64,000 nt of DNA from Escherichia coli (GCF_044647545.1 NZ_CP172818.1); one strand, 5' to 3'. Shown: positions 26,229 through 55,444, counted from the first letter of the stretch. The notes: generated from the sequence alone by a model not told the origin. Numbers and translations: made by a program.

Positions 26229-26570
26229 ATGAACCAGTTTTATGTTCACGTTCGTCTATTTGAAGACACAGCCGAACAGACCAAAAAATTTGAAGAATTA
26301 ATGCTTAACTTTCTGTACCAGAAAACAGTTAAAGAGTCTGACGATAGCTGCTGCAGACTGATTCCAGAGGGATATATCCTCAAAAGTACAATGAACTGCC
26401 AACAAATCCTTGATCAAACATTTTCAATTGCTAACAGTGCCGGTGTTGACGCAAATATATTTGTCTGTAAATTTGAACAAAGCGCATGCTTACTTCCGTC
26501 TGCTTCCTTAGTTGGTAACGATTTCGTTCATTACGATCTTACGCCTAAGCCCATCAAGCTCGATTCTTAA
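26229..26570 (+). CDS. ymfI: prophage protein of unknown function
   Basis: Start MNQFYVHVRLF gives 113 aa; no recognisable motif. Confidence 0.55.
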   Translation: MNQFYVHVRLFEDTAEQTKKFEELMLNFLYQKTVKESDDSCCRLIPEGYILKSTMNCQQILDQTFSIANSAGVDANIFVCKFEQSACLLPSASLVGNDFVHYDLTPKPIKLDS

Positions 26571-26816
26571 AGCCTTAACCATTGTGTCGTGATAAACACG
26601 GCTCACCTTCTCTCCATTGCATGGCAGAGGGGTGAGTGTGTTAGCCATGAAATTCATGAACTCGGTTCGACCAGGGGCTTGCGCCCCGCAAGTCTTTAAT
26701 GCCTGTTTTGCTAACAAAATGCGGGCCTCAGTGCCTGCATTTGGCTCTATCTGCTGCAAACGTTTAGCGTCTTCCAGCAACAATGCGATCACATGCTTCA
26801 AATTCTGCTCATTCAT
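26508..26816 (-). CDS. ymfJ: prophage protein of unknown function
   Basis: 102-aa ORF downstream of a strong promoter-like element. Confidence 0.6.
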   Translation of the reverse strand: MNEQNLKHVIALLLEDAKRLQQIEPNAGTEARILLAKQALKTCGAQAPGRTEFMNFMANTLTPLPCNGEKVSRVYHDTMVKALRIELDGLRRKIVMNEIVTN

Positions 26817-26922
26817 CTATTCTCTCCACTGAAATCATCCGCTAACGAATCATCCCGGTCTTCGTACGTACCGGGCGGGCTACTTCGTGGGCGTCCTGCC
26901 TGTTTGTTGTTTCTCTTGGGTA

Positions 26923-26951
26923 CATTATGTATCTCAAAGGTACATTGTCAA
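26923..26951 (-). promoter_or_regulatory. sigma70-like promoter for ymfJ with overlapping GTACC operator half-sites
   Basis: Minus strand TTGACA, 17-nt spacer, ATAATG; tGTACC motifs overlap both hexamers. Confidence 0.5.
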
Positions 26952-26952
26952 G

Positions 26953-26978
26953 TATAAAAAAACCTGCCGAAGCAGGTT
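26953..26978 (-). terminator. rho-independent terminator of cohE
   Basis: Minus strand AACCTGC-ttcg-GCAGGTT followed by TTTTTTT, 13 nt after the cohE stop. Confidence 0.75.
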
Positions 26979-26990
26979 CATAAACATTGA

Positions 26991-27665
26991 TTAGGCTTTG
27001 ATTTTGTATCTTCTTGGTTTTCCTGAGAAAATCACAGTACCAATTATAGAGCAATTACCGTTGATCTTAATGTAAGGCTCAGGCCAGTTTGGGTTTAACG
27101 CTTTGAGATAACGCTGTGTCCCATCTTCTATCAACCTTTTGAAGGTGGTTTCACCTGTATCGTGCATCAATGCAATAACGTCGTCACCGTGGCAGGCAGG
27201 TACTTCAGGATCGACAAAAATCATGTCTCCCGGGCGGTACTCATCAATCATTGAATCACCTATTACCCGCAAGATATAAGTCATTTCCCCACAGGGTACA
27301 GGGCAGGGATACGTTTCTGCTGTGCTCAAATCAACCTCAGAATATCCAACTTCTTTCCATGCTCCGGCCTGTACCCATGATATGACAGGGACTAATGTGA
27401 TTTGTTTATTAGTGATTGAAACATCAGGTTTTTTTGTGATGTTCGTTGTCTGGTGTTCTTGATCGAGCCATCCTACAGGCAGGTCGAAACATTTTTCGAT
27501 GTGTCGTGCCATGCTGTCACCGATATTTTTAGTAGCACCATCTCCCATAAACCTGCTGGTCTGGGTTGGCTCGCGATCAATCATAGTGGCAAAGGAAGAA
27601 TTCCCGCCAACACCATCTCTCAGTTTTCTGGCGTTAGACCGCCGGATGTCATGGATTGTTTTCAT
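26991..27665 (-). CDS. cohE: CI-like prophage repressor (HTH plus LexA-type S24 peptidase domain)
   Basis: 224-aa ORF; C-terminal VIGDSMIDEYRPGDMIFVDPE self-cleavage domain; divergent from cro-like gene. Confidence 0.85.
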   Translation of the reverse strand: MKTIHDIRRSNARKLRDGVGGNSSFATMIDREPTQTSRFMGDGATKNIGDSMARHIEKCFDLPVGWLDQEHQTTNITKKPDVSITNKQITLVPVISWVQAGAWKEVGYSEVDLSTAETYPCPVPCGEMTYILRVIGDSMIDEYRPGDMIFVDPEVPACHGDDVIALMHDTGETTFKRLIEDGTQRYLKALNPNWPEPYIKINGNCSIIGTVIFSGKPRRYKIKA

Positions 27666-27680
27666 AACGAAATTAAAACC

Positions 27681-27701
27681 CTTGTACCGTTAAGGTACAA
27701 G
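27681..27701. promoter_or_regulatory. operator palindrome CTTGTACC-gttaa-GGTACAAG between cohE and croE
   Basis: Perfect 8-bp inverted repeat with 5-bp spacer; related half-sites ATGTACACC/GGTACAT at 27731..27750. Confidence 0.6.
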
Positions 27702-27705
27702 TATC

Positions 27706-27734
27706 TTGAAGGTTCATTTCAATCATGTAATATG
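27706..27734 (+). promoter_or_regulatory. candidate croE promoter
   Basis: TTGAAG, 16-17 nt spacer, TAATAT, then GGAGG SD at 27741..27745. Confidence 0.4.
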
Positions 27735-27755
27735 TACACCGGAGGTACATATTGT

Positions 27756-27956
27756 ATGAAAGCGTATTGGGACTCTTTAACCAAAGAACAGCAGGGCGAG
27801 TTGGCCGGAAAAGTTGGCTCAACACCTGGCTACTTACGGCTGGTTTTCAATGGCTATAAAAAAGCCAGTTTTGTGCTGGCTAAAAAACTTGAGCAATACA
27901 CATCAGGTGCAATTACGAAATCTGACTTAAGACCGGATATCTATCCGAAAGATTAG
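27756..27956 (+). CDS. croE: Cro-like regulator
   Basis: ATG 27756 (MKAYWDSLTKEQQ) gives 66 aa; GGAGG 11 nt upstream; divergent from cohE. Confidence 0.75.
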   Translation: MKAYWDSLTKEQQGELAGKVGSTPGYLRLVFNGYKKASFVLAKKLEQYTSGAITKSDLRPDIYPKD

Positions 27957-27987: not shown

Positions 27988-28554
27988 ATGAGGCTAATCG
28001 TGGGTAAGCATCACTGGAAAATAGAAAAACAGCCTGAGTGGTACGTGAAAGCTGTCAGAAAAACTATCGCGGCGTTGCCGAGTGGTTACGCTGAAGCGGC
28101 TGACTGGCTCGATGTAACAGAAAACGCTTTATTCAACCGCCTTCGTGCAGATGGCGATCAGATTTTCCCGCTGGGATGGGCAATGGTTTTACAGCGTGCT
28201 GGTGGCACTCACTTCATTGCTGATGCTGTGGCGCAGTCTGCAAATGGCGTCTTTGTGTCTCTTCCTGACGTCGAGGATGTGGACAACGCCGATATTAACC
28301 AGCGTCTGCTGGAAGTCATTGAACAGATCGGCAGTTATTCAAAACAGATTCGTTCAGCAATCGAAGACGGTGTAGTGGAACCGCATGAGAAGACAGCAAT
28401 TAACGACGAGCTGTATCTCTCAATTTCGAAGCTGCAGGAGCATGCAGCACTTGTCTACAAAATTTTTTGCATTTCAGAAAGTAACGCCCGCGAGTGTGCA
28501 GCTCCGGGCGTCGTGGCGTCGATTGCTTCTGGTTGTGGAGAAACTAACGCATGA
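27988..28554 (+). CDS. ymfL: prophage regulatory protein (CII-like family)
   Basis: 188-aa ORF immediately downstream of croE, early-region position. Confidence 0.6.
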
Positions 28555-55424: not shown

Positions 55425-55444
55425 TACTGTATATAAAAACAGTA
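55425..55444. promoter_or_regulatory. LexA box (SOS operator) of umuDC
   Basis: TACTGTATATAAAAACAGTA, 20 nt upstream of the umuD start. Confidence 0.85.

Follow-up and report, generated by a model that had tools for sequence, protein, structure and literature searches.

A probable lambdoid immunity switch with related putative operator dyads at three promoters of the Escherichia coli prophage e14

The region between ymfJ and ymfL of the defective prophage e14 was analysed within a stretch of 64,000 nucleotides of Escherichia coli DNA (GCF_044647545.1 NZ_CP172818.1), referred to below as the window, in which all positions are counted from the first letter. Over 1.9 kb this segment is 100% identical to e14 in E. 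coli K-12 MG1655, whose annotation lists the genes ymfJ, ymfK, ymfT and ymfL; ymfK and ymfT are termed here cohE and croE, respectively. The two genes encode a CI-type repressor and a Cro-like protein and, as noted in a previous sequence-only reading of this DNA, diverge across a gap of exactly 90 bp (27666..27755). The arrangement of genes, promoters and inverted repeats described below suggests that the region is very probably a lambdoid immunity (lysis-lysogeny) switch, built like the OL-cI-OR-cro segment of lambda, in which left and right operators (OL and OR) serve the leftward and rightward early promoters (PL and PR). Dyads of a single type lie at the cohE promoter, at the croE promoter and at the promoter of ymfJ, and they are conserved in 14 related loci.

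CohE displays a C-terminal S24 peptidase domain (PF00717, 1.5e-26) that aligns with the corresponding domains of lambda CI, UmuD and LexA, with Lys176 located opposite lambda K192. Ala100-Gly101 and a serine, Ser138, within the motif GDSM were read from the protein sequence. The features of self-cleaving repressors, comprising the S24 domain, an Ala-Gly site and a Ser138/Lys176 dyad, are therefore present at the level of sequence and alignment. Pfam helix-turn-helix (HTH) models gave no match in residues 1-90, and the N-terminal region matched the PHROG repressor families phrog_12107 and phrog_5736. In addition, residues 1-76 matched the SPC32H Rep protein (PDB code 5d50) weakly, with E = 0.0018. 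The N-terminal stretch REPTQxSR, the putative recognition helix, is conserved in all loci compared. CroE comprises 66 residues; its matches to the Pfam YdaS and HTH_3 models are weak and below threshold, and its PHROG match (Table 1) is clear.

The dyads conform to a 19-bp consensus, ATGTACC-N5-GGTACAT, with the core TGTAC-N7-GTACA. In the cohE/croE gap, the perfect palindrome CTTGTACC-GTTAA-GGTACAAG, previously placed at 27681..27701, was found exactly there and contains the site termed OR-A. The sequence-only reading also proposed related half-sites near the croE Shine-Dalgarno sequence; sites are indeed present at that position, but the description was an understatement, as a full second perfect dyad, ATATGTAC-N7-GTACATAT, extends from 27730 to 27752 and encloses the GGAGG Shine-Dalgarno sequence (27741..27745). 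This second dyad, which contains OR-C, can be extended to 15-nt arms with 87% complementarity (27723..27759). A weak candidate site, OR-B, lies between the two and departs from the core at three positions in K-12 and at two in most relatives. On the other side of cohE, the ymfJ promoter lies directly after the terminator stem (26979..26960), just past the cohE terminator as had been stated. The GTACC motif reported at its -35 and -10 elements is likewise present, with one GGTACAT (26939..26945) abutting the -35 and another (26919..26925) overlapping the -10. What had been missed is that the copy adjacent to the -35 belongs to a full dyad with operator spacing, OL1, which carries one mismatch in K-12. 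The neighbouring OL2 has two mismatches in K-12, its distal half reading GAAACAA.

The positions of these sites relative to the promoters are consistent with roles as operators. The ymfJ promoter, denoted PL, had been described as TTGACA-17-ATAAT at 26923..26951; the site is the same, but the spacer measures 16 nt, the -10 hexamer is CATAAT and the lower coordinate was off by one. PL is predicted from its sequence to drive ymfJ and the leftward genes from a start point near 26917. Differential RNA-seq placed the ymfK start point at the first base of the start codon, with a leader length of 0 (PMC4681348). The cohE mRNA is thus leaderless, its first nucleotide being the A of the start codon (27665), which fixes TTTAAT as the -10 element and leaves the -35 element, TTGTAC, inside OR-A. 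Since OR-A is centred at -26 of this promoter, it should repress it, while the position of OR-B on the same promoter would be -43. The croE promoter, read from the sequence, matches the consensus at 8 of 12 positions and falls below the threshold of the promoter scan. Its start point is predicted near 27740, in which case OR-C would cover the -10 element, the start point and the Shine-Dalgarno sequence. OL2 occupies the same position on PL (-10/+1) as OR-C on the croE promoter.

Table 1. Features of the e14 immunity region and of the adjoining left arm, in coordinates of the window. PRM, repressor-maintenance promoter; aa, amino acids.
Feature	Coordinates	Strand	Description
OR-A	27682..27700		TTGTACC-GTTAA-GGTACAA; spans cohE promoter -35 and spacer; centre at -26 from cohE start
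OR-B (candidate, weak)	27699..27717		AAGTATC-TTGAA-GGTTCAT; centred on croE -35
OR-C	27732..27750		ATGTACA-CCGGA-GGTACAT; overlaps croE -10, predicted start point and Shine-Dalgarno sequence
OL1	26927..26945		ATGTATC-TCAAA-GGTACAT; between PL -35 and -10; one mismatch in K-12
OL2 (weaker)	26907..26925		20 bp from OL1, over PL -10 and start point; direct repeat D1
PL-like promoter	26924..26951	-	TTGACA 26951..26946, 16-nt spacer, CATAAT 26929..26924; 11/12 matches
cohE promoter (PRM-like)	27672..27700	-	-35 TTGTAC 27700..27695, 17-nt spacer, -10 TTTAAT 27677..27672
croE promoter (PR-like, predicted)	27706..27733	+	TTGAAG 27706..27711, 16-nt spacer, TAATAT 27728..27733
cohE terminator (intrinsic)	26960..26979	-	8-bp stem, then T run
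cohE (ymfK)	26991..27665	-	CI-type repressor, 224 aa; PHROG match phrog_4 (transcriptional repressor)
croE (ymfT)	27756..27956	+	Cro-like small HTH protein, opens the rightward operon; phrog_35
ymfJ	26508..26816	-	First gene 3' of PL; phrog_12693 (unknown function)
ymfL	27988..28554		CII-like; PF06892, phrog_101
Leader RNA (~65 nt)	26836..26917	-	Closing stem, small invariant hairpin, covarying hairpin; 84.8 bits

The motif scan suggested with the sequence-only reading was run across the window as TGTAC-N7-GTACA with at most one mismatch and returned three matches, against 0.95 expected; these are OR-A, OR-C and OL1, all located in the two control regions. From the dyad scan, the probability that a random match lands in a promoter core of ~45 bp was calculated to be ~7e-4. 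The tetranucleotide GTAC occurs less often in the window than expected (167 vs 248). When two mismatches were allowed, the number of dyads was at chance level (18 found vs 19.7 expected), and because matches of this quality occur at chance frequency, OL2 and OR-B rest on position and conservation. Inside cohE, isolated GGTACA (27295) and TGTACC (27370) motifs were observed 75 bp apart and facing outward, forming no dyad.

Conservation was assessed by scanning one genome per species, which identified 13 loci with CohE homologues of 73-99% identity and, with K-12, a set of 14. The relatives belong to Pseudocitrobacter, Klebsiella, Phytobacter, Atlantibacter, Pantoea, Trabulsiella, Entomohabitans, Limnobaculum, Rahnella, Edwardsiella and Enterobacter, and two further ones come from contigs labelled Martelella and Lachnospiraceae. 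The latter, the metagenome-assembled 3-kb contig SFGN01000223.1, contains a cohE module with 99% identity and most probably represents a piece of an enterobacterial prophage that was assigned to the wrong bin. All 14 loci display a common left-side layout in which the terminator is followed by TTGACA, the dyad ATGTACC-N5-G(G/A)TACAT, a single A and a second ATGTACC separated by N5 from a degenerate half-site. The stem and T-run terminator was found at the matching position in related loci, and the -35 and -10 elements of PL are identical in 14 of 14, with CATAAT overlapping both the right half-site of OL1 and the left half-site of OL2. The half-sites of OL1 are 0.98 and 0.91 identical, with a spacer identity of 0.33, and form a perfect palindrome in most relatives. 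In OL2, the promoter-proximal half is ATGTACC in 13 of the 14 loci (0.98; ATGTACT in the remaining one), while the distal half has an identity of 0.45.

A similar pattern was observed in the right control region. The half-sites of OR-A are 1.0 and 0.86 identical around a spacer of 0.33; for OR-A and OR-C together the half-site values range from 0.83 to 1.0. The spacer of OR-C reaches 0.81, being constrained by the croE Shine-Dalgarno sequence within it. Distances are fixed in these loci at 50 bp between OR-A and OR-C and at 20 bp between OL1 and OL2. OR-B is conserved as ATGAACC-N5-GGTACTT, with the half ATGAACC at 0.98. Most of the 14 loci present TnTAAT 6-7 nt before the cohE ATG, the three variants being GAGAAT, AATAAT and TTAAAT, and the TTG and -10 element of the croE promoter are conserved in the relatives. 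OR-A reads TTGTACC in all 14 loci and most other strong half-sites read ATGTACC, a difference that may, by analogy with lambda OR3, set different affinities for CohE and CroE.

The dyad can also be followed beyond the close relatives. The repressor of Pseudomonas phage vB_Pae_BR144a (263 residues) has an N-terminal domain 59% identical to that of CohE, and the rest of the protein does not align. In its divergent control region, one dyad, ATGTACC-TCCTG-GGTACAA, lies over the Shine-Dalgarno sequence of the gene on the other side, and a second one, CTGTACA-TTTCT-GGTACAG, adjoins the start of the repressor. These dyads, together with the shared N-terminal domain, tie the dyad to the CohE-type DNA-binding domain. 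Downstream of the BR144a repressor gene, two copies of another dyad, CTGTATATACAG and CTGTATATACAA (segment 2026-2041 and ~2082-2097), were observed that are not of the TGTACC type, and the left side of this phage may be controlled by another protein.

Within E. coli, the ymfK-ymfT-ymfL module is joined to other leftward genes (yfdP/Q/R/T and others) in many of the 2,575 matching genomes. Homology to e14 in such prophages ends at 26908, 26897 or 26841, the first two breakpoints marking the outer edge of OL2 and the third lying just after the leader RNA. Breakpoints located just outside OL2 argue that OL and PL belong to the immunity module and travel with cohE. The ymfJ promoter thus appears, on its sequence, to hold the place of PL/OL in the classical lambdoid layout rather than to be an unusual extra target. 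The earlier suggestion that the repressor may control ymfJ as well as the cro side is supported by the comparison, which locates a dyad in the ymfJ promoter core in 14 loci.

In the proposed mechanism, CohE dimers would bind the 19-bp ATGTACC-N5-GGTACAT dyads via the N-terminal domain. Occupancy of OR-C would shut the rightward early operon, from croE, ymfL and ymfM onward, and occupancy of OL1 and OL2 would shut PL and hence ymfJ and the leftward genes. Occupancy of OR-A would provide either negative autoregulation of cohE or the route by which CroE shuts off cohE, and the weak middle site, OR-B, may act on the croE -35 element. Upon DNA damage, activated RecA would promote self-cleavage of CohE at Ala100-Gly101 through Ser138 and Lys176, and both early promoters would then fire together. 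In agreement with a role as phage repressor, cohE is essential in the Keio collection (PMC5992433). Because ymfL is CII-like, cohE may also be transcribed from a CII-activated promoter that points leftward from within or beyond croE. The paper on SfIV describes SfII, SfV and SfIV as lacking CII; a homologue of the CII-like ymfL is nevertheless present in all three.

Which protein binds the dyads (CohE, CroE or both), the relative affinities and the self-cleavage of CohE are what we infer. It is very unlikely that CroE or another phage protein alone occupies the sites and that CohE recognises something else. CroE is an HTH protein encoded beside the sites and sequence by itself cannot name the binder, but in BR144a dyads of this type occur together with an N-terminal domain resembling that of CohE, neither control region contains another conserved dyad, and in the lambdoid switches known from textbooks repressor and Cro share operators.

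A second alternative concerns the SOS response, in which LexA would directly repress the e14 early genes, including ymfJ, via weak SOS boxes and the GTAC dyads would be irrelevant to induction. This account has been built on the finding that azidothymidine (AZT) induces 17 of 22 e14 genes in a way that depends on the cleavage of LexA, which was credited to 13 weak LexA boxes with heterology indices of 15-21; induction was also SspA-dependent, and CohE is not mentioned in that paper (PMC11228462, PNAS 2024). In addition, ymfI, intE and ymfE are listed in the literature with potential SOS boxes. A 2024 Frontiers study, on the other side, suspected a CI-like repressor. The timing of induction does not favour direct control by LexA, since true LexA targets respond ~40 min earlier than the e14 genes, and the latter depart from the trend with heterology index (PMC11002266). 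In the same study, the late kinetics of ymfJ on the left and ymfM on the right are alike, with log2 fold changes of 1.34, 4.05 and 4.83 vs 1.44, 4.00 and 4.77, respectively. In a dam mutant, ymfJ was the most induced gene (PMC11741368).

The LexA-box core CTGT-N8-ACAG, with at most one mismatch, occurs 32 times in the 64 kb against 18.4 expected, a number reached in 0 of 100 shuffles. Nine matches fall between 25716 and 35489, an interval that we take to lie inside e14, and a perfect core, which speaks for the LexA account, is located at 26313..26328, inside ymfI/ymfJ. However, no match was found between 26481 and 28331, which includes PL (26907..26951), PR and the cohE promoter. Moreover, a dependence on LexA cleavage, as revealed by lexA3, would be expected indirectly, by inference from lambda, if cleavage of CohE needs SOS-level RecA activity. 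Direct repression by LexA is therefore considered very unlikely. Far outside e14, a near-consensus LexA box, CTGTATATAAAAACAG, was observed at 55427..55442, which from its map distance to intE is presumably the umuDC operator.

It is scarcely credible that the palindromes act as RNA hairpins, as terminators or attenuators, instead of protein sites. The scan marks 27701..27681 on the minus strand as terminator-like, with an 8-bp stem followed by GGTTTTAATT, and conserved arms flanking a variable loop would fit a hairpin as well; however, the arms never covary and their sequence is constant at every site and locus, OL1 lies in the promoter spacer and is not transcribed from PL, and the cohE transcript begins downstream of OR-A. 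Invariant arms, free spacers, the recurrence of the same arms at each site and the lack of covariation argue for protein operators. Finally, chance resemblance of the GTAC-rich ymfJ promoter sequence, which could appeal to the one mismatch of OL1 and the two of OL2 in K-12, the latter a match quality expected by chance, is effectively refuted by the comparison, as OL1 is a perfect palindrome with strictly conserved half-sites in most relatives and a one-mismatch dyad in a promoter core has the low probability given above.

Several observations weigh against the proposed CohE-controlled switch. The distal half of OL2 and the whole of OR-B are weak, and matches of such quality occur at chance frequency; OL1 of K-12 has one mismatch; the croE promoter agrees with only 8 of 12 consensus positions; and the start points of PL and PR are predictions. 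A strong OR-A looks out of place on the cohE promoter, which is active in the lysogen; relative affinities may differ from what the symmetry of the sites suggests, as TTGTACC at OR-A in all 14 loci contrasts with ATGTACC at most other sites. The dependence of e14 induction on LexA cleavage is explained only indirectly, and its dependence on SspA not at all. A literature search for binding, footprint or reporter data on CohE or CroE found none, and a search for CohE/YmfK binding data from ChIP-exo, DAP-seq, gSELEX and a PPTP-seq supplement yielded nothing. Similarly, no operator consensus or statement on OL/PL was found in the literature searched, which did not include the original e14 and SfV papers, and a text search for the operator and leader sequences returned nothing.

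The transcript predicted from PL begins with a structured leader RNA. In the fold predicted by RNAalifold, a closing stem surrounds the invariant small hairpin GGC-AGGAC-GCC, a single strand that is likewise invariant, CACGAAGUAGCC, and a second, covarying hairpin whose conserved loop reads GGCrUAyGAAnn. The leader belongs to the left-arm module and not to the immunity module. BLAST revealed it in 47 phage records, and in the inspected loci of SfV, ST64B, ZF40, YeP1, SPN3UB and mEp237 it lies behind unrelated repressors, ~100-400 bp past the repressor gene (in mEp237, past an unannotated gap) and always 15-35 nt after a PL-like promoter. It is also present in SfII and SfIV and in more than 120 viral contigs; a covariance model identified a single copy in each of 80 viral contigs, and the copy of a locus invariably lay on the side of PL. 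Among 66 distinct leader sequences, 98% of cells are paired and 176 cells are compensatory vs 52.5 in shuffles (0 of 500 reach 176), while pairing drops to 22-42% when the partners are slid. The underlying alignment was fitted to the covariance model, which favours structure, but several columns display four pair types, and covariation is strong in two helices. The K-12 leader folded alone is unremarkable (z = -0.62), so that the support for the structure comes entirely from covariation. A search of Rfam at a permissive threshold retrieved only a chance match to rsmX (E = 2.8), and the leader is thus absent from Rfam. We are highly confident that the conserved RNA structure of the leader is genuine.

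The function of the leader is much less certain. The SfIV paper reports that phages of this group lack N, and the absence of N suggests a put-like antiterminator. A role as an elongation or antitermination element is nonetheless viewed here as rather unlikely. Equally speculative is that the leader represents an undescribed class of cis-acting RNA that would modify RNA polymerase or recruit a host or phage factor and so control elongation or Rho termination in the early left operon; if true, it would correspond in function to HK022 put or nutL but be folded differently. Homology to HK022 put was rejected, as the covariance model, searched up to E = 10, gave no match in the locus of HK022 and the likeness is only a loose one, judged by eye. 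A position ahead of intrinsic terminators was not supported either: when 3 kb downstream of the leader were examined in 93 distinct viral-contig loci, sense-strand terminators occurred within 1.5 kb in only 8 of 93, and opposite-strand ones in 54 of 93. Many antisense and few sense terminators point to frequent convergent genes of the 'moron' type in the early left operon, of which ymfI is an example in e14. Some E. coli prophages with a yfdP-type left arm have a boxA-like sequence of the rrn/nut type, CGCTCTTTAACAA or AGCTCTTTAACAA, after the leader (~30 nt beyond it in one case), where it adjoins the terminator of an opposite-strand gene.

The e14 repressor/Cro pair was reportedly already recognised by Mehta et al. 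in 2004, and the architecture itself is standard; the site map for the three promoters appears to be unpublished. It would provide the e14/SfV/SfIV immunity group with a concrete operator consensus, and the operators should apply in the Shigella serotype-converting and Stx2c phages, to which the module is common. The map also bears on the disagreement of 2024, since operators of the CohE type, but no LexA box, lie at each of the two early promoters, and it would offer a direct CohE-based account of an SOS induction previously credited to weak LexA boxes. The general view of how immunity switches work is unchanged.

Among known systems, lambda agrees with e14 in the order and direction of the genes, in having a repressor of the S24 self-cleaving type whose mRNA is leaderless, in the dyads placed on the two early promoters, in the strong PL just left of the repressor and in the CII-like gene (ymfL in e14) that follows cro. 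In contrast, the 19-bp operator of e14 is unrelated to the 17-bp sites of lambda, and where lambda has three sites on each side, e14 displays two clear OR sites 50 bp apart with a weak one in the middle, and two OL sites. The strongest-looking OR site of e14 lies on the promoter of the repressor itself, rex and N genes are absent, and the N-terminal domain of CohE is not recognised by Pfam HTH models. The sole solved structure matching this domain is the SPC32H Rep protein, and the match is weak. Rep is reportedly inactivated by an antirepressor, according to those who described its structure, whereas CohE carries an S24 self-cleavage domain. For the leader, the resemblance is to HK022 putL, in that both are structured RNAs of ~65-70 nt with two hairpins located just after PL in a phage without N; the e14-type leader differs in having a closing stem that put lacks, in the absence of a copy on the PR side and in the rarity of downstream intrinsic terminators. 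The closest counterparts are SfV and SfIV, in which CI is 99% and 100% identical to CohE, respectively, and OR and PL/OL are near-identical. In the GenBank record of SfV, the segment that separates cI from cro is marked as a 'putative operator region' and a terminator follows cI; no OL or PL feature is annotated. SfV, SfIV and the Stx2c phages are functional, in contrast with the defective e14.

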